DNA from: Candidatus Poribacteria bacterium
Lineage (GTDB): Bacteria; Poribacteria; WGA-4E; WGA-3G
Direction: 5' to 3'
DNA: 64,000 nt
Assembly: GCA_963665235.2 (NCBI GenBank)
Contig: CAXXLX010000002.1
Span: 96,001-160,000, forward strand
Below the pieces are notes generated by a model. The model did no database searches. It worked only from the letters and a program-made list of their open reading frames with translations, and was not told the DNA's origin. The position numbers and the translations under genes are program-made. Positions 7,675-64,000 of this stretch are shown here, piece by piece. Position 1 is the stretch's first letter. Each line of letters begins with the position of its first letter.

Positions 7675-7695
7675 TGTACTTAATCGGCGAGGTTT

Positions 7696-7725
7696 TGCGG
7701 CGTACTCGCCCAAATGCGACGTGCA
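7696..7725. repeat. 30-bp micro-insertion TGCGGCGTACTCGCCCAAATGCGACGTGCA (identical copies at 20802-20831, 33904-33933, 36390-36419)
   Basis: Four identical copies, each preceded by TT and followed by TTCA, lying inside two different host repeats. Confidence 0.85.
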
Positions 7726-7935
7726 TTCACAACCTCGCCAGCAATCGAGAGGGCGTAAATCCTAGCTATAACGCTAGCCTGAACTTTAAATATTAACCTA
7801 AGTTGCCACATAGTAGCATAATCTTCCAGATTGTGCATATGTGCCACATAGTAGCATAATCTTCATGAAGATTAAGAAATTAATTCGGTAATTTCTGTTT
7901 TTATGTTATCCTATTGTCCCAGGAGGTATTGTCTT

Positions 7936-9020: not shown

Positions 9021-9230
9021 TGCCACATAGTAGCATAATCTTCCAGATTGTGCATATTTGTGTGCCACATAGTAGCATAATCTTCCAGATTGTGCATATT
9101 TGTGTGCCACATAGTAGCATAATCTTCCAGATTGTGCATATTTGTGTGCCACATAGTAGCATAATCTTCCAGATTGTGCATATTTGTGTGCCACATAGTA
9201 GCATAATCTTCCAGATTGTGCATATTTGTG
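9021..9230. repeat. Tandem repeat 5 x 42 bp (TGCCACATAGTAGCATAATCTTCCAGATTGTGCATATTTGTG) containing a GTAG-hairpin
   Basis: Five perfect copies read directly; partial copies at 7804-7864. Confidence 0.95.
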
Positions 9231-9351
9231 TGCAAATTGGAAGTGAACCGGACAAATATTAGCTAATTATCAGCATATTTTCATTAAAGACGGTGTTTCC
9301 AGGTCTAAAAACTTATAAGTAGCAACTTGGGTAATATTACAAGGAGACATA

Positions 9352-12108: not shown

Positions 12109-12249
12109 CGTGCTTTAGGACTTCCGCCTTCCCCCCGCTTAAGAGCGGGCTGCTTGCCCGAATACTGGGGGGATAAAGGGGGGGTAAACAGCGATAAATA
12201 ATGTTTAATCGGCGAGGTTTTGACACCTCGCCACAACCTATTATCTTTT

Positions 12250-12820
12250 GTATCACAAACTTCCCAGTTTGTATCTTTTGTAGCATAAACTTCGAGTTTG
12301 TGCGGGCATTTTTGTAGCATAAACTTTCGAGTTTGTGCGGGCATTTTTGTAGCATAAACTTTCGAGTTTGTGCGGGCATTTTTGTAGCATAAACTTCGAG
12401 TTTGTGCGGGCATTTTTGTAGCATAAACTTCGAGTTTGTGCGGGCATTTTTGTAGCATAAACTTCGAGTTTGTGCGGGCATTTTTGTAGCATAAACTTCG
12501 AGTTTGTGCGGGCATTTTTGTAGCATAAACTTCGAGTTTGTGCGGGCATTTTTGTAGCATAAACTTCGAGTTTGTGCGGTGTATTTTGTAGCATAAACTT
12601 TCGAGTTTGTGCGGGCATTTTTGTAGCATAAACTTCGAGTTTGTGCGGTGTATTTTGTAGCATAAACTTCGAGTTTGTGCGGTGTATTTTGTAGCATAAA
12701 CTTTCGAGTTTGTGCGGGCATTTTTGTAGCATAAACTTCGAGTTTGTGCGGTGTATTTTGTAGCATAAACTTCGAGTTTGTGCGGTGTATTTTGTAGCAT
12801 AAACTTCCAGTTTGTGCGGG
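12250..12820. repeat. Tandem REP-like array, 16 units of 34-35 bp plus one degenerate unit (TTTGTAGCATAAACTT(T)CGAGTTTGTGCGG-GCATT/TGTAT)
   Basis: Units counted by eye; core is GTAG + hairpin GCATAAACT-loop-AGTTTGTGC. Confidence 0.95.
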
Positions 12821-12990
12821 GTGTAAAGTTTTTGGCATAGAGGCCCAAACTTTTGTTCTCTTTAGTCCCATAGGGACGCTATATTTATAGACAAGCGTTG
12901 CCTCGCCTCTCTTTAGTCCCATAGGGACGATATATTTATAGATTGAAAAAAAGCACATGCTTAATCACAAAACCTTAAGGAGAAAATGAA

Positions 12991-43954: not shown

Positions 43955-46260
43955 GGTTGTGCTGTTCCCGCGATGTTTTTCTTCTGTAGGAGCGTGCTGT
44001 TCCCGCGATGTTTTTCTTCTGTAGGAGCGTGCTTCGCACGCGATATTCTTTCTCTTCTGATGAATTTTGACGTTCAAGTTGGGTATTCGTAGGGGCGTGG
44101 TCTCCATGCCCGAGCTACAGAAACTCGCAAACCAAGCAGGTTGGGGAGCCCAACCCCTACGTATCCAATTACCGATTTTGATTGTCAAATTTGATTAGAC
44201 GAGATCCCTCCCCCATTATCCTCTGTTCGGAAAATATAAGAAAACACAATATCGTAGGGGCTAGGTCCCCTCGCCTGCTATCCTTTGTCCGGAAAATATA
44301 GGAAAACGCAATTCTGACAAAAAATGCGTAGATGTTAGCAACATCCCTCTTTTTCCGCGTCCTCTGCGTTCTCCGTGCTAATCCGCGATACAGACAAAAA
44401 AGATGTAGCATAAGCACAAAAACTTTACGCACTATTCCAAACTGGTTCGATTAAAAGATTTTGGGGTTAAGTGCTATAACCTCGTTTAGAATTGTTTCTA
44501 TTCCAAACTGGTTCGATTAAAAGACGCGGTCTCCTCCGTGGCGCGAACCTGATACGGGTTTCTATTCCAAACTGGTTCGATTAAAACGAGAAATATGATG
44601 CATTATCGCGTGTTTCTAGAAGCCACTGGTTCGACGTAAAAGGTGAGAACACGCTAATTACAGTGATAAAAAAACAAAGTTTCTATTCCAAACTGGTTCG
44701 ATTAAAAGGAAACCTATCCAAGCTGCCGTTAAAAAAGCAGTTACGTTTCTATTCCAAACTGGTTCGATTAAAAGTGATTCGTGATGCACGTGACCGCCAT
44801 AGATACGCGTATATGTTTCTATTCCAAACTGGTTCGATTAAAAGCACAATCGATTCAGGCGTTTTTCTTGATGGCAGGACGACGTTTCTATTCCAAACTG
44901 GTTCGATTAAAAGTGACGGATACCCAGACACGCCGAGGTGAAGTGCAATAGTTTCTATTCCAAACTGGTTCGATTAAAAGTCTGCAATCATTGCGAGGCG
45001 ATAAATGTGTGTTCCGGTTTCTATTCCAAACTGGTTCGATTAAAAGTCATCAAACTGAATAAAACCTCTAACACCATGCCCGTTTCTATTCCAAACTGGT
45101 TCGATTAAAAGGTTTTGTGACTCGTTAACCCCCAAGGGCCGTGTAATCAGTTTCTATTCCAAACTGGTTCGATTAAAAGATGACACACTTGTTATCCAAT
45201 CTGTCGCTGCGGAGTTTCTATTCCAAACTGGTTCGATTAAAAGTAAGAAATCGCGGCTTCAGTTGGGTTCGTTGATAGGCGTTTCTATTCCAAACTGGTT
45301 CGATTAAAAGATTATCCGAGTGGCACGATTCGGTATATATCTTTATAGTTTCTATTCCAAACTGGTTCGATTAAAAGTCCATGGCTTGAAAGACGCGTTG
45401 AATAATTTCTTCAGTTTCTATTCCAAACTGGTTCGATTAAAAGCAAGACTTAGCCCCCGCCACCAGCAGCATGCATTCTTGGTTTCTATTCCAAACTGGT
45501 TCGATTAAAAGTCGAGAAAGGACATTGGAGTTGGCAAATGCTCGCACTAGTTTCTATTCCAAACTGGTTCGATTAAAAGTGAGGAGAAAGTTTTAGAGAA
45601 ATGTCGTCAACTCATAAGTTTCTATTCCAAACTGGTTCGATTAAAAGTCGAAGAGCTTGAAAACCTCCTCGACGAATGGATTCGTTTCTATTCCAAACTG
45701 GTTCGATTAAAAGTAACACCAGCAACCGACCTGGACACGTCCCTAAACTGTCGTTTCTATTCCAAACTGGTTCGATTAAAAGGTATAGCGTTCCGAAACT
45801 TATTCTAAAACCATGAGTTTCTATTCCAAACTGGTTCGATTAAAAGTCAGTTGATGACACCTATCAGAGATAAACAGGCGCGTTTCTATTCCAAACTGGT
45901 TCGATTAAAAGTCAACTTCAAACTCGTTGAGTATTAGAGACCTTATCAAGTTTCTATTCCAAACTGGTTCGATTAAAAGTTTGCGGGCACTGCACAGCAA
46001 ACACCCCCGCCTCCAGGTTTCTATTCCAAACTGGTTCGATTAAAAGATATACTCAATTCATCACATAACTCCGATTTTAACACGTTTCTATTCCAAACTG
46101 GTTCGATTAAAAGATACTGCCCCGTAACCCTGATATGGTAGCACTTGCCGAGTTTCTATTCCAAACTGGTTCGATTAAAAGAAAGCTTTAGAAAAAGCAA
46201 AAGCACTTGAAGCACTGTTTCTATTCCAAACTGGTTCGATTAAAAGCGCCAGAGGAGCTA

Positions 46261-47491
46261 GTGCTAGGTCATGCGGTAATTGACGGGTAAAGTTTTTTGA
46301 GTTTTATACGTGCATCGTCAGTTGTAAACCGCCAACTTATATCGGCACGTTGTTCGTTTCTTCGGTCTTGCCACGCCCGTATCTCCTTCTTTAGGGTCTC
46401 TTGGTCAGCGATCCGCTTTGAAAGACAGCCGCGGGATAGCACCGATAGTTCAATCTCCGCCATATTCAACCAACTGCCATGCTTCGGGGTATAGTGAAAC
46501 TCAAGTCTTTTCGCAATACGCCGGGCTTCAGCCGGTTCAAAAGCTTTATACAGCGAAGCGGTTTTATGTGTGTTGAGATTGTCACAAACGAGTGTAATCT
46601 TTTCAGCCTCCGGAAAATGGACATCCACTAGGTCTCGGCAAATGAAGGCAAAGTCAATGCTTGTGCGTCTGTCGGTTACCTCAACGTGCCGAAATCCGTC
46701 AAAGGGTGCGAAAATCATGAACAGATTACTCACACCATTTCGCTGGTATTGATAATCATATCGGAGCGGAGCCCCTTCAACCATGGGTAAAGGGCTTCGG
46801 GTTTCTTTGATGTGTTGTTTACTTGTTTCATCAACACAAACTACAGGATTTTTGGTATCTTGTGGACGCTGATAGACTTCGAGAACATCCTCCATCGCTG
46901 CAACGAACTCCGCATTTGATTCGGGAGGAATACACCATTGCTTTTTTAGCCAAGGTCTAAGTTCGTTTTTTTTAGGACCCGGCGTATGGTCTCGTGAGAT
47001 ATGCTATCAAAATGTTCCAACTCCACCATCTTTTCCGCTAACAGCCGAAGCGTCCATCTCGCACACCCCTCTGGCGGTTCCGAGCAAACTAAAGCGATAA
47101 GATGTGCTTCTTTTTCACCATCAAACTTTTTGCCTGGGGTGTCTGAACGCTTTTTCGGGTTGAGTGCGGCTGTGAGGTTTTCAAGCACAAAGGCTTTACG
47201 GGTTCTCTCAATAGTCGGTATTGAAACTTCAACAGCCTCTTTTATTTTATCATCGGTGTAGGCGGGTCCGAACTCGCCTTCATCGGCTTTCAATAGGATC
47301 CGGGCACGGGTAAGTTTGCGTGCCGATTCTTTCCCAGAAGATATCAGAGTAATGAGATAATCTCGTTGGGACTGATCAAGAATGACTTGATATTGTTTTG
47401 CTGCCATAATAGACTCCAAGTTATGAATAATCACTTGAGTCTCATTATACCATTTTTATCAATAACTATCAAGCAGCTGTTGACTAAACAC
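46261..47491 (-). mobile_element. IS630-family element inserted in a CRISPR spacer
   Basis: TA duplication (46259-46260, 47492-47493); TIRs GTGCTAGGTCA / TGACTAAACAC; removing it restores a 36-bp spacer. Confidence 0.92.
46269..47407 (-). CDS. IS630 transposase in two ORFs (HTH ORF 46946-47407/47434; DDE ORF 46269-46895), probably joined by frameshift
   Basis: RARILLKAD..RWTLRLLA; CVDE, VCDNLNTH, YTPKHGSWLNMAEIE; A7 run at the junction. Confidence 0.85.
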
Positions 47492-49292
47492 TAGGCGACA
47501 GATACAACCATTTGCGTTTCTATTCCAAACTGGTTCGATTAAAAGGCAATGAATCTCATTATCTCGCTTGCCATATTTTCGGTTTCTATTCCAAACTGGT
47601 TCGATTAAAAGGTCTCCGTCCCCGTTCGCTGTCCGCTACGACGCGCGGTTTCTATTCCAAACTGGTTCGATTAAAAGTCACACGCACATCTAAACTCTGT
47701 GCAGGTATATCCGCGTTTCTATTCCAAACTGGTTCGATTAAAAGTGTTTCCATCTGTGGGAAGCCTCTCGTAGATGCTCCGTTTCTATTCCAAACTGGTT
47801 CGATTAAAAGCTTGCAATTGGGTTCACAAGCTGCGTTTAGTATAAGTTTCTATTCCAAACTGGTTCGATTAAAAGGGGACATGAAGACGATTTGTATGCG
47901 GACTGGCAAAATGGTTTCTATTCCAAACTGGTTCGATTAAAAGTTGTGGTCGTTTCTTTGACGAGGACGTAGCGGATCGTTTCTATTCCAAACTGGTTCG
48001 ATTAAAAGCTTGCTGGAGGTGGTGCCCGGAGGTGTGCGATGTTGCCGTTTCTATTCCAAACTGGTTCGATTAAAAGCTCTGTCCTCCTATACCTGTTTCT
48101 CGGATATATTGAGTTTCTATTCCAAACTGGTTCGATTAAAAGGCTTCATCTATGAAAAAGATTACCAAAGCGAATCTGCTTGGTTTCTATTCCAAACTGG
48201 TTCGATTAAAAGTTGTTTCCTGTGACTGGGTATTCCTTGCTGGGGTTACCGTTTCTATTCCAAACTGGTTCGATTAAAAGTCATCGTTAAACAAAGCACG
48301 TGAATTGTTAATAGAGTTTCTATTCCAAACTGGTTCGATTAAAAGGGTGTGATACTTGTAGCTATTTTACAGCTTATTTTCTGAGTTTCTATTCCAAACT
48401 GGTTCGATTAAAAGTCTTTGCGTTGCTGCTCTGTGATTTCCGTATCACCTTGTTTCTATTCCAAACTGGTTCGATTAAAAGGATACTCACACCGAATAAA
48501 ATCGTGATTCACTAATTCTGTTTCTATTCCAAACTGGTTCGATTAAAAGACTGTTGAGTATTGCATTAAATGAGATTGTATTCCGTTTCTATTCCAAACT
48601 GGTTCGATTAAAAGAATTGAGATGGCAGCAACACACGTTCGGGATGCAAAGTTTCTATTCCAAACTGGTTCGATTAAAAGGGAGGTTTGGAAATGGGTTT
48701 TTACACAGTGGACACAGGTTTCTATTCCAAACTGGTTCGATTAAAAGTCGTGGCCAACGGGGCCACAATCGTGTCAGGCAGAAGAGTTTCTATTCCAAAC
48801 TGGTTCGATTAAAAGCAATGTGATGATACGCAGTATCAATGCAATGTGGCGTTTCTATTCCAAACTGGTTCGATTAAAAGGAATGCTCGTCCTCGTAAGG
48901 TGCCTGCGTATAAGAAGTTTCTATTCCAAACTGGTTCGATTAAAAGGAATATCGCTGCTATGGAGAATAATCTAAAGTTGTGTTTCTATTCCAAACTGGT
49001 TCGATTAAAAGTCCTCCTCCGGGTCTGGGGCTGGCACGCCTACGTGTATGTTTCTATTCCAAACTGGTTCGATTAAAAGTCTACGGACAACTGAAACCGC
49101 CATCCCTTAATGGCGCGTTTCTATTCCAAACTGGTTCGATTAAAAGTCAATTCCGCCTATGGTAACCACTATGGACATCGCAGTATGTTTCTATTCCAAA
49201 CTGGTTCGATTAAAAGGTAAGGAACTAGCGAAAGTTTCCAGAACGTGACGCATAGAAATCCGCGTTTCTATTCCAAACTGGTTCGATTAAAA

Positions 49293-49557
49293 CCGATGTT
49301 GAAACATCACGCGGCCTACCATTGGACGATAGAAAACAAATCACACTGGGTTCGTGATGTCGTTTTAGGAGAGGATGCCTCAAAAGTGAGAACAGGCAGT
49401 ATCCCCCAAGTCATGGCAGCTTTACGCAACACCGCACTGGCGGTCTTACGATTTGCTGGGTATACCAAAATCTCCGAGACAATACGATCTTTCGCCGCAA
49501 AACCTAAACTCGCAGTTAACCTCATCACATGAAAATTCTTAAAACTAAATGGCCCTG
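49293..49557 (+). mobile_element. ISAs1-family transposase 3' fragment with right TIR, inside the array
   Basis: HWTIENKSHWVRDVVLGED..LRNTAL motif; ends AAAACTAAATGGCCCTG. Confidence 0.85.
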
Positions 49558-51330
49558 TGGTAACCACTATGGACATCGCAGGAACACGTGACGCAGAAAT
49601 CCGCGTTTCTATTCCAAACTGGTTCGATTAAAAGTGACTGGGTAGCGATTCACACGGAACATGTTGAGGTTTCTATTCCAAACTGGTTCGATTAAAAGGG
49701 AGAAGCCTGCATTGCGAAGCGCATCGTTGAAAGCGTTTCTATTCCAAACTGGTTCGATTAAAAGCAAAGGTAAACATGCCCTTCTACGTCCAGTCTGAGA
49801 AGTTTCTATTCCAAACTGGTTCGATTAAAAGGTGAGGTCATACTAGAGCGGTATCGTGCGTTTGTGTATGTTTCTATTCCAAACTGGTTCGATTAAAAGT
49901 TTACAGAATTTCCAGCATAGCGTCGTAATGAAAACGGTTTCTATTCCAAACTGGTTCGATTAAAAGCGAATTACCCCACGTGATTTATGAATTAGAATCC
50001 ATGGTTTCTATTCCAAACTGGTTCGATTAAAAGACATTCACGACTGACAGCAAAAAAGGGACAGGCGAAGTTTCTATTCCAAACTGGTTCGATTAAAAGC
50101 GCGGATAGCGATGCTTATGACGCTATCCGCGCGAATGGTTTCTATTCCAAACTGGTTCGATTAAAAGAAATACGAGATTGTCGGTGCGCCAGCGACGCAA
50201 AGTCGTTTCTATTCCAAACTGGTTCGATTAAAAGGTAATTTTTCTCCCCTTTTTGCATCAGGGGGCCGCCGAGTTTCTATTCCAAACTGGTTCGATTAAA
50301 AGTTTTTCGCGTAATCTCTGTATAGAGTGTTAAAAGTGCGTTTCTATTCCAAACTGGTTCGATTAAAAGTGGGCTCGCTGGACAAGACGGTATAGATGGG
50401 TCGCCGTTTCTATTCCAAACTGGTTCGATTAAAAGAAGTGGGGGACATCATTTTTATCCATCGGTCAAAGTTTCTATTCCAAACTGGTTCGATTAAAAGG
50501 GGAAAATTTACTATGTTTATAACCATTCGGACGCAGTTTCTATTCCAAACTGGTTCGATTAAAAGTTCGATGCCACACCAAACTGGTTCGATTAAAAGCT
50601 TTTCGTTCCTCCTTAGTAGCGATTACGCGGGATGTAGTTTCTATTCCAAACTGGTTCGATTAAAAGGTATTTGGCATTAAACTTACGCATATAAAAGTCT
50701 ATGGTTTCTATTCCAAACTGGTTCGATTAAAAGATTAAGTAGGATAATCCGTACCGAGTTTTGTTTTGCCGGTTTCTATTCCAAACTGGTTCGATTAAAA
50801 GCGCGTTTCTCAGCCGCTTGACACGCGACATAAGTTTGTTTCTATTCCAAACTGGTTCGATTAAAAGAAGGCACACCGGATCAGAATATTACAGAGATTA
50901 CTGCGTTTCTATTCCAAACTGGTTCGATTAAAAGATTACTCAGTCGGCAACAAAGAAAACCCCAGCGGTGTTTCTATTCCAAACTGGTTCGATTAAAAGC
51001 ACCTGCACCATAAGACCTTACAAACTGAGCAGCATCGTTTCTATTCCAAACTGGTTCGATTAAAAGGAACAATTTCGACATGGAGTGAAAATCGTTAACC
51101 GCGGTTTCTATTCCAAACTGGTTCGATTAAAAGACAGGCATGGCACGGCTCACTTCACTGCCCTTTACGAGTTTCTATTCCAAACTGGTTCGATTAAAAG
51201 GGCCGCAACACCGGCAAAACACCCGCCTCCCGCGCAGGTTTCTATTCCAAACTGGTTCGATTAAAAGTGTTGCATGCGTTTGCTGCGTGCGGTTATCTTT
51301 GCTGGTTTCTATTCCAAACTGGTTCGATTA

Positions 51331-52236
51331 TAGTAGATTTTAGAATTACGTATACATATTGATAATCTCGGTGAGTGACTTATCTGCGTTATATTTCCGG
51401 AGCCGCTTAATGTTGGCGAAGTCCTGTTCAATCGGATTGTAGTCCGGAGAATACGGGGGCAAAAACAAAAGGGTTGCCCCTGTTGCTTCTATCAGTTCTC
51501 TACTTCGCGCCGTTTTGTGAAAAGTCGCATTGTCCATTATCACTGTGTGCGATGCTGTGAGATGCGGGCATAAGTCTTTTGATAACCAAGTGTTGAAACG
51601 CTCGGCATTGCAGCTGCCTTTGAATAAGGTGTGTGCCGCAAACTTCCCCTCTATTCGTGCAGCTATCATATTCGTTTTGGGATGTTTTTGACCGGTAACT
51701 AATGCACGAACAGGGACACCTATAGGGGCATACCCATAAGGTCTAAAAGTCTCTGGCATAAAACTGCATTCGTCCACAAAAACTAAGGACTTCCCGTTCT
51801 GTTGTTCTATTTGCAACTGTTTTTGATAGGTTTGACGCTTTTGAGGGCAGTGCTCCTTATACCCTATTGTTTTTTTTTTCGCGTAAAACCCATTTTTTTC
51901 AATGTATACCAAATACAGAAGGTGGATACCTCGAAGTGATTTGCCCGCTCTGCTAGTGTTTGATCTGGAAAATCGGTAGCGTGTTTTCGGAGTGCCTCAA
52001 CAGAGAGTGCCCGGGGGCCTCGGGGGCCCGGTTTTTCATAAGTGAAAGGGTCTTCGGCAGAGAGCCACCGGTAAATGATAGTGCGGGAAACAGAAAAGCG
52101 TTTCGATGCTTCTGTTTTACTGCCACCTGCTTCAATAAAATCTAAGACGCGTTTACGTAAATCCTTGGAATATCTCATAATATATGAAGTATACCAAATG
52201 CAGAAAAAAATGTCAACGTATTTCCATAATCTACTA
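51331..52236 (-). mobile_element. IS630-family element (ORFs 51864-52178 and 51346-51912) inserted at the TA of a CRISPR repeat
   Basis: Repeat split as ..GTTCGATTA | IS | TAAAAG; TIRs TAGTAGATTTTAGAA / TTCCATAATCTACTA; MRYSKDLRKRVL, FVDE, IMDNATFH, LPPYSPDYNPIE. Confidence 0.92.
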
Positions 52237-52242
52237 TAAAAG

Positions 52243-52399
52243 TTCGAGACAATGCCTCAAAAGCAAGAACAGGCAGCATCCCCCAAGTCTCTTAACAAAC
52301 TGGCAGTCTTACGATTACGAAAAAAACGATCTTTCGCCTCAAAACCTAAACTCGCAGTTAACCTCATCACATGAAAATTCTTAAAACTAAATGGCCCTG
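52243..52399 (+). mobile_element. Heavily deleted second ISAs1 right-end fragment
   Basis: Collinear with 49370-49557 but with many short deletions; the terminal ~60 bp are identical. Confidence 0.75.
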
Positions 52400-55300
52400 T
52401 ACCCCGAGTTTCTATTCCAAACTGGTTCGATTAAAAGCTTAGATTTCAGGAGGCGGTAAACGAGGCGAATGACGGTTTCTATTCCAAACTGGTTCGATTA
52501 AAAGAACAAACAATTAGCTGACACCCTCAAGGAGATAGATAGTTTCTATTCCAAACTGGTTCGATTAAAAGTGAATACAATAGTCCGACAAGCGTACCCA
52601 AAAAAAGTGTTTCTATTCCAAACTGGTTCGATTAAAAGTCTGTATTCGTAGAGAGACTGCCCCCCTCCGCGGGGGTTTCTATTCCAAACTGGTTCGATTA
52701 AAAGTGTACGTTTCCATACCAAGAGAGCGCGTGACTCAGTTTCTATTCCAAACTGGTTCGATTAAAAGTCATTTTCGAGTAAGATGGAGCCGTCTGTGAA
52801 CACAAGTTTCTATTCCAAACTGGTTCGATTAAAAGGCTGCTTGTCAGGAAACATTTTGACAATCTTTAGCGTTTCTATTCCAAACTGGTTCGATTAAAAG
52901 TTGCGTCGACCTTGTTCTTTTCGTCGCGTGCATGCGTTTCTATTCCAAACTGGTTCGATTAAAAGCGCGGCCTTGATTTTTACCTGAACATTCCGACCAT
53001 GTTTCTATTCCAAACTGGTTCGATTAAAAGGTGGTTGTATAGGTCAGGATGTTCTTACTTGTGATAGTTTCTATTCCAAACTGGTTCGATTAAAAGCATC
53101 TCAATCCCTGCAATCATCGTAGGCGAATGTGGGAGGTTTCTATTCCAAACTGGTTCGATTAAAAGAAAAAGAGAACCAACGAGGCAGAAGTGGGGAAGTC
53201 AAGTTTCTATTCCAAACTGGTTCGATTAAAAGCAACTGCTGAAACAAAAGTGGAAGCTTATAAAATAGGTTTCTATTCCAAACTGGTTCGATTAAAAGTC
53301 GCGCGGGCATCAGAGCCCCCCGAAAAAATTTTAGGTTTCTATTCCAAACTGGTTCGATTAAAAGATAAATACAGGTGATAATGTGTGTATAACACTACCG
53401 CCGTTTCTATTCCAAACTGGTTCGATTAAAAGGACACATCGGGGGATATTCATCGTTATCCCAAAAATGTTTCTATTCCAAACTGGTTCGATTAAAAGCA
53501 ATTGGGTATGCCTTTTCGGTTTCTCCTCCTTAGAGGTTTCTATTCCAAACTGGTTCGATTAAAAGAAGGGGAGAAAAATGATAGGTGAAAAAACCTTAGC
53601 GAATGTTTCTATTCCAAACTGGTTCGATTAAAAGATGGGAATGCCAGATGGGCACTTGGACATAAACCAGGTTTCTATTCCAAACTGGTTCGATTAAAAG
53701 CCAAGGCGGCTACAGATTACCCGGTTGGCAAGGTGTTTCTATTCCAAACTGGTTCGATTAAAAGGTGGACATTTCATTCTCCTTTCCAGATTCACTGGAA
53801 TGTTTCTATTCCAAACTGGTTCGATTAAAAGGGATACGGTTCAACCGTTGATGGCGTTGTTGAGAATGTTTCTATTCCAAACTGGTTCGATTAAAAGTTT
53901 CAATAACATCGCTCCTTGAGGATGTTATTGACAAGTTTCTATTCCAAACTGGTTCGATTAAAAGGCTGCAAAAATAAACCTTATGGCATACCACGGTTGG
54001 GGTTTCTATTCCAAACTGGTTCGATTAAAAGGAGTTTTGCCAGCGCCACCCGCTGGGCGGAGAGGAAGTTTCTATTCCAAACTGGTTCGATTAAAAGGTA
54101 TGCTGTGGATGCATCTTTAACAATTTATAATGGTTTCTATTCCAAACTGGTTCGATTAAAAGTTAACCGCGTATTACTTCCAAACGCGGAAGACGTACGT
54201 GTTTCTATTCCAAACTGGTTCGATTAAAAGGAACACACCATGGGGTCTCGTTCGACCGACTGAAGAAAGTTTCTATTCCAAACTGGTTCGATTAAAAGTC
54301 AACCTCCACCACAACAGGCACCACAACAGGCACGTTTCTATTCCAAACTGGTTCGATTAAAAGGATAGAGATTTGTTTGATTTGCCTGATAAAAAAGCAC
54401 GTTTCTATTCCAAACTGGTTCGATTAAAAGGAATATCGAGGAATATTTATTATCCCTCGGAAGTTCAGGTTTCTATTCCAAACTGGTTCGATTAAAAGTT
54501 GATGCGAACAATTACCCATACCACCGCGAGAAAGGTTTCTATTCCAAACTGGTTCGATTAAAAGTGTCCAACAAAATTAATCGTAATGGTGTTCAGGTAA
54601 GTTTCTATTCCAAACTGGTTCGATTAAAAGGATGGCAGCTACGCACTTCAGCAACTAAAACATCTAAGTTTCTATTCCAAACTGGTTCGATTAAAAGCAG
54701 AGGATTTTTACGCAATTCAGGTGCCGCCTATTTTTGAGTTTCTATTCCAAACTGGTTCGATTAAAAGGGCGGTTGTTCCTGTCTCTCCTGTGCCTATAGA
54801 CGCGTTTCTATTCCAAACTGGTTCGATTAAAAGTCAAATGCCCTTAGCACCCCAATCGGTACATCCGTATGTTTCTATTCCAAACTGGTTCGATTAAAAG
54901 GCGGTTGTTCCTGTCTCTCCTGTGCCTATAGACGCGTTTCTATTCCAAACTGGTTCGATTAAAAGTTGCCGATGCTAACAACGCTCTTTACATCAACGAA
55001 AAGGTTTCTATTCCAAACTGGTTCGATTAAAAGGAAATTGGGATACTCATTAACGATATTGAACGTAGTTTCTATTCCAAACTGGTTCGATTAAAAGTCG
55101 CACGTAATCGAGACTGCCGCCATTTTTTTAGAAAGGTTTCTATTCCAAACTGGTTCGATTAAAAGTTAAAAAATAGTTTTTTAAGGAGGTGAGAAACCTA
55201 AGTTTCTATTCCAAACTGGTTCGATTAAAAGTGCCCGATAGGGTTTATTGCAAATTGTTTTCTTCGAAGTTTCTATTCCAAACTGGTTCGATTAAAAGCG

Positions 55301-58300
55301 AAAGCATGACATCCCAACTTTCTTTTAGAATGAAGTTTCTATTCCAAACTGGTTCGATTAAAAGCGTCTGAATAGCATGCGAGTATCCGATTTTTACCAA
55401 AGTTTCTATTCCAAACTGGTTCGATTAAAAGAAATGTTCCAGCATGAAGCACGCAAATAGCAACCCAACGTTTCTATTCCAAACTGGTTCGATTAAAAGA
55501 CAGATAAAAGGAGACTAAGGTCACAGCATACCGGGCGTTTCTATTCCAAACTGGTTCGATTAAAAGAGAAACGCTTTGTTGCCCTTTTGCCTCCCTTTGT
55601 ATGTTTCTATTCCAAACTGGTTCGATTAAAAGTGCCATTCCGAGTTTGTTCGCTGTGGGTTTTCAGACCGCGGTTTCTATTCCAAACTGGTTCGATTAAA
55701 AGGTCTTGGTTGTAGAAACGAGGACGCTATCGTCTAACGTTTCTATTCCAAACTGGTTCGATTAAAAGCTCATAATTGAATGCAAATGTTAGCGAGGTTC
55801 CGATTAGTTTCTATTCCAAACTGGTTCGATTAAAAGACCGTTATCAGCGGAGACTTTCCAACCTGGACAGGTTTCTATTCCAAACTGGTTCGATTAAAAG
55901 CTGTTTTCGGGGTGTGGGTCCCAGGTGTCGGCTGTTCCGTTTCTATTCCAAACTGGTTCGATTAAAAGTATCCTTACAGCCTTTCTTCACACAGCATAGT
56001 TCGGTTTCTATTCCAAACTGGTTCGATTAAAAGGGTGTACAAGCACTTATAGATGACCTCACCGCACGGGTTTCTATTCCAAACTGGTTCGATTAAAAGG
56101 AGTGTTCCGAAGTATGCCATACCTTCCTGTAGTGTGTGTTTCTATTCCAAACTGGTTCGATTAAAAGCAGTGGTCGGCACAGGCGGGCCACATATTGAAT
56201 TGCAGAGTTTCTATTCCAAACTGGTTCGATTAAAAGGAAGGTCCCGGTGCGGTTGTCGCTGTTCCGGGTGCGTTTCTATTCCAAACTGGTTCGATTAAAA
56301 GGTCAAGTCTTTTGAGTCCATCCATTTCAGCAGACAGGTTTCTATTCCAAACTGGTTCGATTAAAAGGGTGAACGAGACACACGTTCACCCACAAGGGGG
56401 CTGGGTTTCTATTCCAAACTGGTTCGATTAAAAGGAACAACGTGACGTTCTTACCTCGGTACTTGCTGCAATGTTTCTATTCCAAACTGGTTCGATTAAA
56501 AGTGAAGTTGCATTTTAAGATGGGTTGTCAGGAGTTCGTTTCTATTCCAAACTGGTTCGATTAAAAGGACGGTAAAGGCTTCAAGGTTTTTGAAAAGACT
56601 AAGTTTCTATTCCAAACTGGTTCGATTAAAAGGTGCCAAAAGTTAGACCCGATAAAATCTTTGTTCTTACGTTTCTATTCCAAACTGGTTCGATTAAAAG
56701 TCGGATTCGCAGGCACTCGTGAAAAAATTAGCGACGTTTCTATTCCAAACTGGTTCGATTAAAAGTCTGTTGCAAAAAAATAAACCTGGTGGCATGCACG
56801 TTCGTTTCTATTCCAAACTGGTTCGATTAAAAGGATATTTGCAGACAGAATGAGTCGGTACCTCTATGGTGTTTCTATTCCAAACTGGTTCGATTAAAAG
56901 CGGCATGCGAATGAAGTCAATCAACGCCGCTGGCAAGAGTTTCTATTCCAAACTGGTTCGATTAAAAGTCCAAACCTTTATCGGTGCGCTCACCCTGACC
57001 CTTACGTTTCTATTCCAAACTGGTTCGATTAAAAGTCAGCAGAATCGGACACAAACGACACCCCTAAATCTGTGTTTCTATTCCAAACTGGTTCGATTAA
57101 AAGCCGCATTTAAGTCTGTTCGGATGCAACTTCTCGGTTTCGTTTCTATTCCAAACTGGTTCGATTAAAAGGTTTGTAGTTGTCTATTAGACGATTTGCG
57201 CGTGCAAAGTTTCTATTCCAAACTGGTTCGATTAAAAGACAATTGTAATTTCTGTCCATTGATGTTGTTTCTGCAGTTTCTATTCCAAACTGGTTCGATT
57301 AAAAGAAATTTTTCCAGATTTGAAACGTGAATATCTTCAGCCGTTTCTATTCCAAACTGGTTCGATTAAAAGGCTTGAGATTTCCAATCCGCCGCAATCC
57401 CTTGCATCGTTTCTATTCCAAACTGGTTCGATTAAAAGAACGGTCACGCCAGTAATTTCTCAACCACGCTTCGTAGTTTCTATTCCAAACTGGTTCGATT
57501 AAAAGAAGATAAAAAGTGATTAAAGAAGTGATAAGGCGGGTGCGTTTCTATTCCAAACTGGTTCGATTAAAAGAGTTCCTCCAGCAACAGTACCCGGAGA
57601 GATGGGCCGAGTTTCTATTCCAAACTGGTTCGATTAAAAGACCGACACAAGGCACACCGACACAAGGCACACCGACTACGTTTCTATTCCAAACTGGTTC
57701 GATTAAAAGGTTGATTACCATCTGGGATCATGAAGTTGCAATAAAGTTTCTATTCCAAACTGGTTCGATTAAAAGAAACTCGTGGCCTTGAGGCAGATAT
57801 TGTGATACTGAATGGTTTCTATTCCAAACTGGTTCGATTAAAAGCTACAGACGCTCGAACTGGAGCGACAACAACTGAAGGTTTCTATTCCAAACTGGTT
57901 CGATTAAAAGTGAACAAACAGCAGTGTCTGCTGTTGTGCTGCAAAGGTTTCTATTCCAAACTGGTTCGATTAAAAGCGCGGAACTAAACGATTTAGTTAA
58001 AGCACTCAAATCAAGTTTCTATTCCAAACTGGTTCGATTAAAAGACGGGGGTTGTTGGGTGAAGATGTTGTACTACTTGACAAGTTTCTATTCCAAACTG
58101 GTTCGATTAAAAGGGGGCGATGTTCATCAATTCTGAACGGTTTACAACTTTGTTTCTATTCCAAACTGGTTCGATTAAAAGCAAACGCTACCATCAAAGT
58201 CGAGAGCGGACGCAACAATGTTTCTATTCCAAACTGGTTCGATTAAAAGAAATCCGCTTTAGACAACTGGATGTGGTTTTTAAAAGTTTCTATTCCAAAC

Positions 58301-60189
58301 TGGTTCGATTAAAAGGCTATGAAGCCGCATTTTGTGGAGCACAGCCGATTTATCGTTTCTATTCCAAACTGGTTCGATTAAAAGGCAAACAACCCACGCT
58401 TAGATTAACCCCGCAACCGAGTTTCTATTCCAAACTGGTTCGATTAAAAGATCGCTTATTAGCAGGCTGTCCATTCACGAGTGTTGTTTCTATTCCAAAC
58501 TGGTTCGATTAAAAGCTACGGGTGTCATATTAAATATCCGAGATTTAATTACGCGTTTCTATTCCAAACTGGTTCGATTAAAAGGTATCCAAGCAGCAAA
58601 AAAAGGACAACGCCGTAAACGTTTCTATTCCAAACTGGTTCGATTAAAAGTAGCACTCTTAGAAAATGAGAACACAAAAGACACGTTTCTATTCCAAACT
58701 GGTTCGATTAAAAGGCTGCACCGCCTTTTCTTGCTTGAGTGCCGATTTCTGTGTTTCTATTCCAAACTGGTTCGATTAAAAGGCTGATTCGGTTTTGCCC
58801 AAAACAAAATTTCATCATGTTTCTATTCCAAACTGGTTCGATTAAAAGTCCTCGTCGGTTTCGGGTGCGGTTTCGGGTGCGGTTTCGGTGTTTCTATTCC
58901 AAACTGGTTCGATTAAAAGGGGATGCAATTTATAGTCGACGGACTTTAACCGTAAGTTTCTATTCCAAACTGGTTCGATTAAAAGAAATCGCCCACACGC
59001 GACGTAACACCGAAATGGGAGAGTTTCTATTCCAAACTGGTTCGATTAAAAGGACGGAGGTAACAACATGAAACGTTTTCGTTTGTGGGTTTCTATTCCA
59101 AACTGGTTCGATTAAAAGGCGTGCTGTCTGGCAAAATATCGGATAAAATATCCTCGGTTTCTATTCCAAACTGGTTCGATTAAAAGGCCTGGAATTGTGA
59201 TTTCCCGCCATCAATTTTTATAGTTTCTATTCCAAACTGGTTCGATTAAAAGGGTAGGGGGGCTCGATGGCATCATTCAGGAGATTCAGTTTCTATTCCA
59301 AACTGGTTCGATTAAAAGAGACAAGCAACAGCTGGAAGAAGCCCTCCGAATCACCCGTTTCTATTCCAAACTGGTTCGATTAAAAGGAACCCCAACCCCA
59401 ACCCCAAATGTTCAAAGACGCAACAGTTTCTATTCCAAACTGGTTCGATTAAAAGGATGAGATATTATTACGGAAAACTAATTAAAGCAAGTTTCTATTC
59501 CAAACTGGTTCGATTAAAAGCACCCCACATATCGCCTATACCCTCGTCCCCCTCTCACGGTTTCTATTCCAAACTGGTTCGATTAAAAGTATGAACTTGT
59601 GGAACCCTCTAAAGTGTGTGAGTCCGGTTTCTATTCCAAACTGGTTCGATTAAAAGGCACGACATTGCGTTGACAGCAAAGTGCATGCTACTTTCGTTTC
59701 TATTCCAAACTGGTTCGATTAAAAGTGAACTCGCGTGTGATAGCAATAGCAACAAAACGAGCGAGTTTCTATTCCAAACTGGTTCGATTAAAAGGGTTGC
59801 ACTGAGCATTTTTAGCTGTTCGACAACATGTTTCTATTCCAAACTGGTTCGATTAAAAGTTCCAACCAATAGAAAAGTTTTCAGAAGTAATAGCGTTTCT
59901 ATTCCAAACTGGTTCGATTAAAAGCGCCATTGATGGACATGTAAAACAACCGTTTGCTAGGGTTTCTATTCCAAACTGGTTCGATTAAAAGCCATACTTG
60001 GGACAAGATAAATTGTCCCCGGCGTGTTTCTATTCCAAACTGGTTCGATTAAAAGGTTCTTCGGACAATTTGATAACCCATGGCTCCCACGAGTTTCTAT
60101 TCCAAACTGGTTCGATTAAAAGTGAGACGGAGCGCGGTGAAACATTTTTCATCAAGGCGGTTTCTATTCCAAACTGGTTCGATTAAAAG

Positions 60190-60445
60190 GCTTCGCTCAG
60201 CCAGCATTAATATTATACTACATCCTTATACTGTTTGTCAAGTTTATTTTAATTTTTTTTCGTTTAGCAGGCAAATTTTTGTCGACCTCCGGTAATGCAA
60301 ATTTCCTAGGAGGTTGACGGATCCTTGTGTGACAAGAGATTATCCCGTTTTTTTACGGAATTCGTTGGTGAGACAAGCACGGAAACTGCTTATTGCAGCG
60401 CGGTCGACAGCAGCATTTATAAGCAGTTTTCCGCACAAGCGTTGT
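60190..60445 (-). promoter_or_regulatory. CRISPR leader with consensus promoter TTGACA(60241-60236)-N18-TATAAT(60217-60212)
   Basis: Sequence between cas2 and the first repeat, AT-rich near the repeat; perfect -35/-10 on the minus strand. Confidence 0.85.
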
Positions 60446-60709
60446 CTATAACAGGTTCGTGGCGGGATTTTTGTCCACACCCATGATCTCTTTGTTCATC
60501 CATCTGGCATCGCGCAATTGGTAGATGATGACAGAGTCTTTTTCAGGATCGGTGATTGCTGCGAGACCGGATTTAACACGGGAGAATTGGGCCTTCGTCA
60601 ATTGTCCCTCAAAAACCGAGTTTTGAACCCAATTGAGATGTTGTCGAAGATATTTACATACCTTTGCAACACGTTCAACCCCAATATCGTAAACGAGAAT
60701 GATATACAT
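60446..60709 (-). CDS. cas2: CRISPR-associated endonuclease Cas2
   Basis: MYIILVYDI..RVAKVCK.LRQHLNWVQNSVFEG..DSVIIY; RBS AGGAGG. Confidence 0.95.
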   Translation of the reverse strand: MYIILVYDIGVERVAKVCKYLRQHLNWVQNSVFEGQLTKAQFSRVKSGLAAITDPEKDSVIIYQLRDARWMNKEIMGVDKNPATNLL

Positions 60710-60734
60710 TAGTATATGCCTCCTTTGAAAAAGG

Positions 60735-61168
60735 TTACCACCAAGGCCGTAATGCCTGATACGTCTCCATGCCAACGAGGTGTTTGATGAGTTTGTAACA
60801 TTCTAAGCGGATAAGGCGTTGATAAGAAACCTTGCGCTTGAGTTGTCGATGCGATACGGTCTGCTTAAGTTGTTCATCAAATTCCGCGATGAAACTTTTT
60901 CGTCCCTGCTCGTTGAGATAACAGGCACCGACATCTTTTTCAAAATGTTTCGTTTCGTTGAGTTGCCCTCTGTTAAACATTCGGAAAATAATCCGATCGA
61001 TGATGAGAGGTTTGAAAATCTCAGCGAGGTCAAGCGAGAGCGAGAAACGTCTGTCGCCGGGCTCATGAAGAAAGCTGATCGTTGGATTGAGCTGCGTTCG
61101 GTAGATCTCCGTGAGACAGGCGGCATACATCAACGAGTTGCCGAAGGAGATGGCGGCGTTGATAGGAT
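60735..61168 (-). pseudogene. cas1: Cas1 (type I-B-like) C-terminal fragment; N-terminal part missing
   Basis: NPINAAISFGNSLMY..FLHEP..RFSLSLDLAEIFKPLIID..CYKLIKHL; upstream it joins directly to a CRISPR repeat. Confidence 0.9.
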
Positions 61169-61328
61169 TATTCCAAACTGGTTCGATTAAAAGACAACTT
61201 CCCCTGAACACTATAAAAGAGGTTGTTCATAGTTTCTATTCCAAACTGGTTCGATTAAAAGGCCCAGCGTAGTAGCCGTAGTAGTTGAACACATGGAAGT
61301 TTCTATTCCAAACTGGTTCGATTAAAAG
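61169..61328 (-). CRISPR. Mini-array: 2 full repeats, 1 truncated repeat, 2 spacers
   Basis: Repeats at 61299-61328, 61232-61261 and 61169-61193 (lacks terminal GAAAC). Confidence 0.92.
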
Positions 61329-61540
61329 GCTTTGCTCAGCCAGCATTGATATTATACTACATCCTTATACTGTGTGTCAAATTTATTTTTTTCGTTTAGC
61401 AGGCAAATTTCTGTCGACTGCCGGTAACGCAAATTTCTTGGGAGGTTGACGGATCGTTGTGTGACAAGGGATTATCCCGTTTTTTTACGGAATTCGTGAG
61501 TGAGACAAGCACGGAAACTGCTCATCGCAGCGAGGTCGAC
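61329..61540 (-). promoter_or_regulatory. Second, diverged copy of the CRISPR leader with the same TTGACA-N18-TATAAT promoter
   Basis: Collinear with 60190-60408, with scattered substitutions and one deletion. Confidence 0.9.
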
Positions 61541-61560
61541 GTATTCGGAGGTGTGCTCCA

Positions 61561-61623
61561 TTTGCAGACATAGAGATAGTTAACGGCGATGCCGGTGATG
61601 TTGGTGTTGTCACGGTTTTGCAT
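61561..61623 (-). pseudogene. cas4: Cas4 N-terminal remnant (21 codons)
   Basis: Hand translation after RBS AAGGAG: MQNRDNTNITGIAVNYLYVCK, matching the Cas4 start motif ITGxxxxYxxxC; it then runs into the leader copy. Confidence 0.75.
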
Positions 61624-61652
61624 TTGTCGTTTCTCCTTTTTCGTGATAAAAA

Positions 61653-64000
61653 CTATAAGCGGTTGGTGCTGTGTTCATCTATGAGCAACCCGAGTGTTTC
61701 ATCGTAGCGAACCTTTATGAACCACTGTGCAAACTTTCCAAAGCGTTTACGTTCATACAGCTGGCCATCTCGACGCAGTCTTGCAAATTGACGGTCGCTA
61801 ATTTGGGCAATATAGGCTCTGGCTTCATAGTACTGGCGTTCTTCAATTTTCGCCCAGAAGGCTTCTTCATAAGATTCGGGCACAACTTCAACACTCTTAA
61901 AGAGTTCATTAAATTCCTTGCGCCCTTCAGAATCTTCGATAAATGGAACAATGCCTTCTAGGTGCCGTTCAAATAATTGTTTCGCCCTATTAAATTTCTC
62001 GGTTTCTTTTTCATTGTAACCATCACAATAGACTTTATCGATAAGACCTTGGATTTCCGATTCGTGCAGAGTCTCTACAGGTGCGAACGCATCTTTAGTA
62101 CGTTCCACCTTCTCGGAGGAGTAGATAAAGTGATCGTTTTCTCCACCTTCCTGGCAAATATGTACATCACAGATACCTTTTTCACCTTTCCTATTGATCC
62201 GCCCGAAACGCTGAATAAGGGCATCTATCGGTGCTGGTTCTGAAAAGAGGCAATCAAAATCAATGTCAAGCGAAACCTCAACCGCTTGCGTACCGACAAG
62301 GAGATCGGCGTTTTCAAGTTCCTGTTCAATACGCTCTCGATCGCGAAGGATAAATCGACTGTGAAGGAGTTTAGCATTTTCAGTTACGTCTCGTAATTGT
62401 TCGAACACACTTTGTGCCTGCTTAACGGTATTACAAACAACCATGACCCGCTCACCTTGCGCGAGTCGTTCTACAATCATGTGGATTGCATCGTGGATGT
62501 CGCCATCAAGTAAACGGACGCGGTGTCGCGTGAATTTGTTCCGTTCTTCCGGTTCCATTTCAACCAGTGCAAGTTCCCCGATTGCCTCGTTAATCTTCTG
62601 TTTAAGAAACTTTGGCATTGTAGCAGTCATAATGCAGAATTTTGCATCGTAGTCTTTACGCAGTCGTTCTACCATCGTCAAAATAAGCGCGGTTGTGTGC
62701 GGATCATAGGCGTGGATTTCATCAAAGATAAAAAGCCCTTTGGACATCTCAGCCATCTGCATCTCAAACCCGCGTATACCAAAAAACGCCTTCAGCAGTT
62801 GAAAAGGCGTTAGCACCTTGTACGGACGACAGATCTTCCGAGTGAGATTGAGATTCTGACTGGCTAACGCGGCTGCATCTTGAGGTGTATACTTCTTATC
62901 AACGCGTGCTTGATTCCCCGTAGGGGCGAGGTTTCCTCGCCCTCCCGCAGCAGTATAATCTTTATCAACGAGTGCTTGATTCTCCGTAGGGGCGAGGTTT
63001 CCTCGCCCTCCCGCAGCAGTATAATCTTTATCAACGAGTGCTTGATACATAAAATAGGCAGCCTTACCATGCAGCATACCGATTTTATCGTCAGATACGA
63101 GTTCCTTCAGCCGATTATACATAGCGTTTATACTGGCGGTGTAGGGTAAAACATAAAAGACCCGGTTGCCAAGTGTTTCACATTGGTTGTTGTCTGACCA
63201 GAGCAAAGCCGCTTCAGTTTTGCCGGAACCGGTGGGCGCGGAGAGCATGAGTTGTCCGGTTGTTTCGCCTGAGGCTTTTTGAAAAGGTTGCCATCCGTGA
63301 AATTGTCGTTTTTTTTCTTCTGCCTTCTCTTTAACATGTTGTGTCAGTTCTGCTTCAAAGTTATCAAGTGCGGCCTGGATCTCATTTTTGCCAGCAGAAG
63401 CGAGGTGGTCACAGGCAATCATGCATCCGCGCATAAGCATGCCATAGGTGCTGTGCAACGGAGTTAATTCACCGTCTTCGAAGTCATTCCAATAGGGAGC
63501 CAGAAATTCTCGGTAACCGCTAATAAGCTCATCTCTCGAGATGACAGGTGTCCATAAGCACTCCTCAGTAGGACACCACTGAGACACCTGTTCCTGAATT
63601 TTCATTAAAGCATCCCAATTCGGCGCGAGTTCTGCAATTCGTCCTTGCCATTCCTCGTAACCCTCTTTATTTTCTTGCCAGGCCGGATGTCTCTCCACTA
63701 GGGTCTCAATATCCTTGTGATGTGTTAAAATCGCGAGCGCGATCGCTTGTTTGACTGGTTCTGGGTATTGAAGCGTGACAACAAATCCAGTCGACAAGAT
63801 CTCGTGGCGATAGTTCCATCGCGTGTCATCTATGAGTTGTTTTTGAAAACCGATTGCTGCCTTTCCGAAATCGTGAAGTGCGACAGCGTAAAAGAGATGC
63901 TCAAAGAAATCGGGCTCTTTGGCAACATCAGCTAAAAATGGCATCCGTTTTCGAAGACTATCATACACCGCGAGGCAATTTTCGGTGTGGTCAAAAAGTG
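61653..64000 (-). CDS. cas3: Cas3 HD nuclease-helicase (true start lies beyond the window)
   Basis: Frame is open to the window edge (..LFDHTENCLAVYD); LHDFGKA, APTGSGKTEA, FDEIH, MTAT, QRFGRINR. Confidence 0.95.
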   Translation of the reverse strand, partial: LFDHTENCLAVYDSLRKRMPFLADVAKEPDFFEHLFYAVALHDFGKAAIGFQKQLIDDTRWNYRHEILSTGFVVTLQYPEPVKQAIALAILTHHKDIETLVERHPAWQENKEGYEEWQGRIAELAPNWDALMKIQEQVSQWCPTEECLWTPVISRDELISGYREFLAPYWNDFEDGELTPLHSTYGMLMRGCMIACDHLASAGKNEIQAALDNFEAELTQHVKEKAEEKKRQFHGWQPFQKASGETTGQLMLSAPTGSGKTEAALLWSDNNQCETLGNRVFYVLPYTASINAMYNRLKELVSDDKIGMLHGKAAYFMYQALVDKDYTAAGGRGNLAPTENQALVDKDYTAAGGRGNLAPTGNQARVDKKYTPQDAAALASQNLNLTRKICRPYKVLTPFQLLKAFFGIRGFEMQMAEMSKGLFIFDEIHAYDPHTTALILTMVERLRKDYDAKFCIMTATMPKFLKQKINEAIGELALVEMEPEERNKFTRHRVRLLDGDIHDAIHMIVERLAQGERVMVVCNTVKQAQSVFEQLRDVTENAKLLHSRFILRDRERIEQELENADLLVGTQAVEVSLDIDFDCLFSEPAPIDALIQRFGRINRKGEKGICDVHICQEGGENDHFIYSSEKVERTKDAFAPVETLHESEIQGLIDKVYCDGYNEKETEKFNRAKQLFERHLEGIVPFIEDSEGRKEFNELFKSVEVVPESYEEAFWAKIEERQYYEARAYIAQISDRQFARLRRDGQLYERKRFGKFAQWFIKVRYDETLGLLIDEHSTNRL
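62887..63046. repeat. In-frame tandem insertion in cas3: 2 x 66-bp units (28-bp cas3 segment + 38-bp REP), plus a third copy of the 28-bp segment
   Basis: GTAGGGGCGAGGTTTCCTCGCCC occurs twice; protein reads QALVDKDYTAAGGRGNLAPT(E/G)N x2. Confidence 0.9.

Follow-up and report, generated by a model that had tools for sequence, protein, structure and literature searches.

The 64,000-nucleotide (nt) stretch analysed here, referred to as the window, covers positions 96,001 to 160,000 of contig CAXXLX010000002.1 from a Candidatus Poribacteria bacterium (assembly GCA_963665235.2), and carries a type I-B CRISPR-Cas locus in which most of cas4 and the 5' part of cas1 are replaced by a second leader and a short CRISPR array, here called the mini-array. 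Related loci hold ~1.05 kb at this site, encoding Cas4 residues 43–169 and Cas1 residues 1–187, all of which is gone here. What stands in its place, after a joint of 10 bp, is a 362-bp block (61530–61169): a whole leader, then two canonical repeats with their two ordinary spacers, and a last repeat of 25 nt. This is very probably a genuine scar of rearrangement, with two illegitimate joints, a mini leader that is an old paralogue and a cas1 truncation much younger than the split of the leaders. The whole account, once a path of two deletions from two neighbouring paralogous units is included, has about an even chance of being right.

All coordinates without a contig name are positions in the window, and all features of the locus lie on the minus strand. 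The order of parts described in the original prediction was confirmed, running from cas3 (61653–64000, with its 5' end beyond the window end) through the cas4 remnant (61531–61623), the mini leader (61329–61540, 212 nt), repeat 1 (61299–61328), spacer 1 (61262–61298), repeat 2 (61232–61261), spacer 2 (61194–61231), the partial last repeat (61169–61193) and the cas1 fragment (60735–61169) to cas2 (60446–60709), the main leader (60190–60445) and the main array (44428–60189, ~198 repeats in all). The type I-B effector set is present, with cas3 encoding an HD nuclease and helicase (Pfam Cas3_HD, DEAD, Helicase_C and Cas3-like_C_2), and cas6, cas8b, cas7 and cas5, which lie upstream of cas3 outside the window, matching NCBIfam type I-B models for Cas5b, Cas7/Cst2, Cas8b1/Cst1 and Cas6; four frame breaks in cas8b in this assembly are a caveat on that set. 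The adaptation set of cas4, cas1 and cas2 is reduced to a single intact member, cas2 (87 amino acids (aa), Pfam CRISPR_Cas2), with cas4 cut down to ~30 codons with a frameshift and cas1 to residues 188–331.

Alignment with the cas4 genes of five relatives places the ATG of the remnant at 61623 and shows that only codons 1–20 are intact (61623–61564; residue numbers follow the intact 169-aa Cas4 of the relative G003). An internal deletion of 34 nt between 61564 and 61563 shifts the frame, and residues 33–42 (MEHTSEYVDL) are encoded beyond it at 61561–61532. The remnant, which had been put at 21 codons, is real, but it consists of 20 intact codons followed by codons 33–42 out of frame, and the 20 bp that had been left unassigned are in fact cas4, making up these codons together with the first 10 nt of the supposed leader. 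The left joint, J1 (61531–61540), is a 10-bp microhomology, GTCGACCTCG, common to cas4 and the 5' part of the leader, at which homology to cas4 ends (V40-D41-L42-G43) and homology to the leader begins. The same 10 bases are matched at 10/10 positions in the leader of an orphan array on another contig, C1, and at 9/10 in the main leader. Upstream of GTCGACC, the main and C1 leaders continue into 37 nt and the tail of cas2, whereas the sequence upstream of the mini copy is cas4; what the other two leaders have kept there is what a deletion from cas4 into the leader of its own unit would remove. In one relative (L037, 6501–7075), cas4 matches in two pieces (residues 1–29 and 20–169) that lie 39 nt apart, a small duplication at the same spot as the 34-nt deletion in the window.

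Across its length (61540–61329), the mini leader shares 89% BLAST identity with the main leader (60408–60190) and 89% with the C1 leader, and the three copies in the genome are about equally diverged (89–92%). An alignment of 220 columns contains 16 differences specific to the mini leader, seven of which belong to one 7-nt indel, leaving nine substitutions, along with seven specific to the main leader and seven to the C1 leader. The best match to the mini leader in 111 other genomes of the family reaches only 72% over 134 nt, and this points to it being an old within-lineage paralogue of the two other leaders of the genome. The description of a diverged second leader with an intact promoter therefore holds, since the promoter-like site (61351–61380, TTGACA-18 nt-TATAAT) matches the sigma-70 consensus at 12/12 positions, the same score as the promoter of the main leader (60241–60212). 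No terminator-like site was found between the mini promoter and the end of cas2, and the only one lies after cas2, as a hairpin in the main leader (60361–60342). With both promoters remaining, the mini promoter is predicted to read through the cas1 fragment and cas2; for this part of the original prediction, the promoter score and the lack of a terminator-like site are observed features and transcription across the two genes is the expectation drawn from them.

The block has the repeats, spacers, leader and promoter of a CRISPR array with its leader. Repeats 1 and 2 are each identical to the main-array repeat at 30/30 positions, and the degenerate distal repeat comprises the first 25 of 30 nt, without GAAAC. 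The spacers, of 37 and 38 nt, fall inside the 33–41 nt range of nearly all spacers in the genome, and both are unique among 304, with no match to any of the 302 others that stand behind the same repeat in the assembly, which consists of four contigs (C1 and C2 among them), is 92.6% complete, and is what is meant by the genome in all searches reported here. The difference from the leader-proximal spacers of the main array thus extends to every other spacer of this repeat. In relatives, 24–29 nt of the last repeat remain at true ends of arrays of this repeat family, and the main array's own trailer repeat is also shortened, ending in GGAATAG followed by TGCG. The missing GAAAC need not, then, mark a break within a repeat, as last repeats of this family normally lose their 3' end. 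Cutting of the third repeat by integrase chemistry was considered and rejected, because the break lies 5 nt from the repeat end and not at the repeat boundary.

At the right joint, J2, the last repeat is fused directly to cas1 at N-P-I-N-A-A, as had been described, with an overlap of 1 nt (the A at 61169) with codon N188, which corresponds to residue 188 of the 331-aa orthologue in G003. From there, the fragment remains in open frame to the stop at 60737–60735, and it covers positions 185–283 of 283 in the Pfam Cas_Cas1 profile. Among relatives, 17 full-length matches to the fragment were found in 16 genomes, all of them in open frames of 332–391 aa. The fragment itself shows 88–93% amino acid identity to 11 intact orthologues with no excess of change, and differs at one of the 108 codons that are invariant in those orthologues, where intact orthologues in the same leave-one-out count carry 0–3 changes. 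Neutral drift over the time of leader divergence would have produced 8.2–12.8 changes (P ≤ 0.003), and the conservation of cas2 is comparable to that of its orthologues. An undecayed fragment next to a leader at 89% identity to its main-array counterpart agrees with the earlier statement that the leader is not a fresh local duplication, and the shortfall of changes (1 against 8–13 expected) indicates that the cas1 truncation is, as dated from these alignments, much younger than the leader split.

Both joints are bridged, with 0–1 differences, in contigs (Logan) from three of four public runs that were compared with 60700–61900; these three (X1, X3 and X4) are samples of one study, and the fourth (X5) belongs to another. 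In each of the three, a contig of 952–955 nt extends from the main leader across cas2, the cas1 fragment and J2 as far as spacer 2 and repeat 2, with one difference (at 61155), and a contig of 136–145 nt runs from the mini leader across J1 into cas4 (61457/61466–61601) with 0 differences. Depths of the contigs on the two sides were 6.8 and 6.9 in X1, 25.6 and 32 in X3, and 18.1 and 19.8 in X4. At 61155 the assembly has G and all X1, X3 and X4 contigs have A, a synonymous difference within an Ala codon of the cas1 fragment. Contigs from X5 cover 60700–60796 and 60844–61154 with 0 differences and nothing from 61356 on, the second ending 15 nt before the joint, beside a variable site.

With the N-terminal domain of Cas1 and Cas4 both lost, the locus would be unable to acquire new spacers, and the catalytic Glu of Cas1 is presumably among the residues missing from the fragment. 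A search of the genome for intact cas1, cas4 and further leaders yielded no match to the Pfam Cas4 family, the third leader on C1, and one other cas1, which is intact and belongs to a type III-D locus that also encodes a reverse transcriptase (RT). Since cas1 is truncated here, no Cas4 is matched and the only other cas1 belongs to the type III-D/RT locus, adaptation for this repeat family in the genome is most likely dead, and the earlier claim that adaptation has been switched off stands on the loss of Cas1 residues 1–187 and the destruction of cas4. The type III-D/RT locus, with matches to Csx10, Csx7 and Csx19, a Cas6-like protein, cas2, RT and cas1, lies at G000:C2:254188–265026 (G000 being the window genome) and has a different repeat. 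A further CRISPR-Cas locus, on C1 (G000:C1:2733933–2744651), has Cas3', Cas6 and Cas2, a differing repeat and no cas1.

The origin favoured here begins with two neighbouring paralogous units. Unit A would have had the order cas6-cas8b-cas7-cas5-cas3-cas4-cas1-cas2-leader-array, and unit B the order cas4-cas1-cas2-leader-array. A first deletion, from codon 43 of cas4 to the start of unit A's own leader, would have removed the 3' part of unit A's cas4 together with its cas1 and cas2, and a second, starting at the third repeat or at the end of the short array of unit A and reaching the middle of unit B's cas1, would have left the two units fused and adaptation killed. Fusion of two units is favoured because the 10-bp joint is what would remain if a single unit had simply lost the stretch from its cas4 to its leader, and no donor is needed because the assembly contains no other copy of the mini unit or its spacers. 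The original prediction had offered either a mobile or ectopic unit or two loci fused by a deletion; the latter fits best, given the 10-bp microhomology and a scar on C1, the mobile unit is unsupported and the ectopic unit stays as a rival.

The scar on C1 (G000:C1:1688740–1689050; L008 8740–9050) stands at the orphan array, which has 111 repeats of the same repeat and the third leader copy. There, unrelated DNA gives way to nt 6–30 of the repeat, followed by the final 17 nt of cas2; next come 37 nt with homology to the window sequence downstream of cas2, and then the leader and array. Taken with the joint in the window, the genome therefore holds two joints between a repeat and an adaptation gene. 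This scar was counted in favour of a fusion of two units, as was decay in two relatives. In G016 (L024, reverse strand 5850–8722), cas6 is followed by 155 nt, Cas1 residues 278–331 and cas2, with the leader split by an inserted transposase-like gene (insertion sequence, IS), the same adaptation module having been truncated there independently. In G015 (L028, reverse strand 8992–12932), an array of seven repeats lies 93 nt upstream of cas4-cas1-cas2 and an array of 24 repeats lies 14 nt after cas2, and no recognisable leader was found at the locus. The last two spacers of the upstream array in G015 are near-duplicates.

Among related loci, 21 combine a full cas3 with 2.6 kb or more of downstream sequence; 15 of these show the order cas3-cas4-cas1-cas2-leader-array, and the remaining six have no adaptation genes within ~5 kb of cas3. 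All 24 relatives of Cas3 in genome_contigs are titled as Poribacteria metagenome-assembled genomes. Comparison with sister genomes therefore bears out the canonical order, but it did not reach a genome of the same genus or the ancestor of the locus.

Several points weigh against the fusion of two units by two deletions. The ancestral arrangement of two units was found in no genome, G000 being the sole member of its genus among the genomes searched, and a scan of metagenomes with the C-terminal half of Cas3 returned one relative with 70% Cas3 identity, too distant to show the ancestral state. Two deletions are required where a single ectopic template switch would do, and the dating assumes that the leader has evolved no faster than neutral coding sites. 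On the side of the assembly, runs X1, X3 and X4 are possibly its source, and their contigs hence not independent of it. No listed contig bridges spacer 1, leaving the link from repeat 1 through spacer 1 to repeat 2 with the assembly alone. A minor, diverged contig also continues cas4 past 61563 as RKLWFYQNH, with three differences and one gap in 67 nt and depths of 2 in X1 (against 6.9) and 9.5 in X4 (against 19.8). This contig is read as coming from a related strain in the same samples, with an intact 5' part of cas4, rather than from the same genome, and that strain could have been a recombination partner. Intact cas4-cas1 in the population had been named as an observation that would count against the rearrangement; both joints are bridged, but cas4 does have an intact 5' part in this diverged contig, which is read as belonging to the related strain.

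The strongest competitor to a fusion of two units, although an unlikely one, is that the block came, by copying or recombination, from another leader-array unit, whether ectopic or foreign. Template switching and homology-facilitated illegitimate recombination are known mechanisms by which this might happen. By the first, replication or repair would have switched from cas4 to another leader at GTCGACCTCG and then back into cas1; by the second, recombination would have occurred with the locus of a related strain that already had the order cas3-cas4'-leader-array. Either route would end in the arrangement that a fusion by two deletions leaves. A copied block would suit a diverged leader and unique spacers beside a young cas1 truncation, joints of 10-bp microhomology and 1-bp overlap, the presence of two other leader-array units in the genome, and a co-resident related strain that is ~94% identical at the cas3/cas4 border. 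However, the assembly contains no donor of the mini leader or of either spacer, the best leader match among the other family genomes stays at 72%, and records of phages and plasmids gave no match to 61169–61640. The proposal of a mobile unit gains nothing from these searches either, as the unit is a single copy in the genome with no phage or plasmid match. Of the marks of a mobile element, there is no second copy and the joints are not a target-site duplication; terminal inverted repeats were not searched for.

A more speculative and improbable possibility is that leader-array units relocate or bud repeatedly through a mechanism associated with the repeats, such as template switching at repeats, and land against fragments of adaptation genes, with the mini-array kept as a guide source for a Cascade that has no adaptation genes. 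Hints in this direction are two independent joints in one genome, of repeat nt 25 with cas1 codon 188 in the window and, on C1, of the repeat 3' end with the final 17 nt of cas2, as well as the adaptation module embedded between arrays in G015.

The mini-array is predicted still to yield two ordinary CRISPR RNAs (crRNAs), and its last repeat retains the expected type I-B Cas6 cut site, 8 nt from the repeat 3' end. The original prediction suggested that these might be regulatory or competing crRNAs, but neither spacer has a match to the genome or the cas locus above the level of shuffled spacers, even in part. Against the cas locus (C2:156000–166600), the best seed match was 11/14, with a mean of 10.7 and a maximum of 12–13 for shuffled spacers, and the best whole-spacer match was 21, against a shuffled mean of ~21. 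Against the whole genome, the best matches were 24/37 and 25/38, with shuffled maxima of 24–26. In viral_contigs, there were 0 exact matches to a 29-nt stretch of spacer 1 or a 30-nt stretch of spacer 2, a search that diverged protospacers would escape. A regulatory role and a mobile origin are both unsupported, because the spacers match no other spacer, genome site, phage or plasmid record.

It is accordingly very unlikely that the mini-array, whatever its origin, is kept as an exapted source of guides for crRNAs with a non-defence role, such as gene regulation or occupancy of Cascade. Its perfect promoter and canonical repeats would agree with such a role, as would its degenerate distal repeat, which is a feature of the mini-arrays described in PMC10120712, and a conserved mini-array with a partial target nearby does exist in related loci, just after cas3. 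The shuffled-level matches just given speak against it, the unit itself was found in none of the 111 family genomes, the conserved spacer of the relatives is absent here, and the leader is complete, unlike in the regulatory mini-arrays described in that paper.

The conserved mini-array of the relatives has two repeats and is found in four loci (L049 2864–2958, L045 6889–6984, L029 9888–9987 and L028, that of G015, ~15888–15987), all four sharing one 40-nt spacer and having a distal repeat that is degenerate. In L029 and L049, the spacer has an opposite-strand match of 27–28/40 located ~140–180 nt upstream, with mismatches at positions 6, 12, 18, 30 and 36, a pattern that would be as expected for Cascade pairing. 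A small open reading frame (ORF) with a strong ribosome-binding site lies near the relatives' mini-array, which may be a regulatory or CreTA-like module and fits the regulatory mini-arrays set out in PMC10120712. A BLAST search of the window genome did not find this 40-nt spacer.

Highly improbable, too, is a local origin, in which a tandem duplication took in everything between mid-cas1 and the main array's third repeat and was followed by a deletion from cas4 to the first leader copy, the copies diverging and the main array moving on. The joint of repeat and cas1 is the expected product of such a duplication, which would also account for the joint of repeat and cas2 tail on C1, but the leaders are ~11% apart counting the indel whilst the cas1 fragment, useless since the duplication, carries 1 change at 108 codons where 8–13 are expected, and the mini spacers are nowhere in the ~198-repeat main array. 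Hardly credible, finally, is an assembly artefact in which two strains or loci were misjoined at a shared repeat, for although repeats are identical over four array blocks, a related strain is present in the samples and spacer 1 is bridged by no listed contig, the sequence at both odd joints is unique, contigs of three runs span them, and the contigs on either side are of similar depth.

Other features of the locus and of the genome deserve mention. The main array is one array split by two IS630-like elements (51335–52407 and 46247–47515) and a 311-nt IS-derived piece (49294–49604); this fragment shares an IS end, and the apparent four arrays are really one. Within that array, one spacer is present in two copies, identical at 35/35 positions and separated by two units (54764–54834 and 54896–54966). 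Just upstream of the orphan array on C1 is an IS630-family transposase gene with arrays of ~31-nt terminal repeats. Spacer 51 of that array (G000:C1:1692361–1692396) matches the cas1 fragment of the window (60887–60922) at 31/36 positions and the cas1 of relatives at 24–30/36, and its source appears to be a related cas1 absent from this assembly. That self-targeting by this spacer drove the deletion was considered and rejected, as it matches the retained part of cas1 and two of its five mismatches are at positions 1 and 2.

In cas3, an in-frame insertion of 44 aa (62901–63040) lies between helicase motifs I (GSGKT) and II (DEIH), and is missing from the Cas3 of G008 and G017. It consists of two extra 66-bp tandem units (the tandem units span 62887–63084), each with a GC-rich palindrome, GGGCGAGGAAACCTCGCCCC, that resembles small palindromic elements scattered in the genome. 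The four frame breaks in cas8b (G000:C2:161821–163233; L006 3821–5233, minus strand) form two compensating pairs, and the shifted segments still have 53–78% identity to the Cas8b of a relative. These breaks may be real recent frameshifts or assembly indels, and an S41 peptidase gene on C1 (L008 5143–6677) that is also split into two ORFs is a hint of the latter. If the breaks are real, interference is dead too and the mini-array inert.

The locus has no bearing on a long-standing open question and, as an illustration of how such loci decay, is modestly interesting. It is, however, a clean example of a CRISPR-Cas locus that loses the ability to learn yet keeps a memory of ~300 spacers, with both breakpoints resolved to the base and an event whose age can be set against that of the leader split. 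The lesson for surveys of degenerate loci is that a mini-array within a cas operon can be a remnant of rearrangement and not necessarily a regulatory guide, and that simple tests, namely conservation, partial targets and the presence of a leader, separate the two.

Among known systems, neo-CRISPR arrays arise from off-target spacer integration, in which local sequence is duplicated as a 'repeat'. The mini-array resembles them as a new small array at an unusual place, but differs in having canonical 30-mers and a complete leader. Mini-arrays and standalone repeats inside cas loci, among them cr-like regulatory RNAs and CreA of CreTA, are alike in that a short array lies within a type I-B cas locus and its distal repeat is degenerate. 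According to PMC10120712, mini-arrays occur in a fraction of 0.18 of I-B loci, some are suggested to derive from truncated arrays, and the regulatory ones usually have two repeats, no leader, conservation in related loci and a spacer partly complementary to a cas promoter. Here, by comparison, there are three repeats, a full leader, no conservation across the family genomes and no partial target. Microhomology-mediated end joining is reported in PMC7521656 to produce deletions in a type I-B host, and the 10-bp microhomology at the joint of cas4 and leader is alike, although here there is no evident self-targeting trigger. The literature search, which covered search listings and passages of PMC10120712, returned no description of a leader-bearing mini-array that replaces cas4-cas1. 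Decayed or adaptation-less type I-B loci and orphan arrays are alike in retaining an interference module and arrays without working cas1 or cas4, and the locus described here differs from them in that a whole second leader and a short array occupy the place of the lost segment within the operon, with base resolution at both joints. On this comparison, it looks like ordinary decay of a locus by rearrangement and not a new kind of system.

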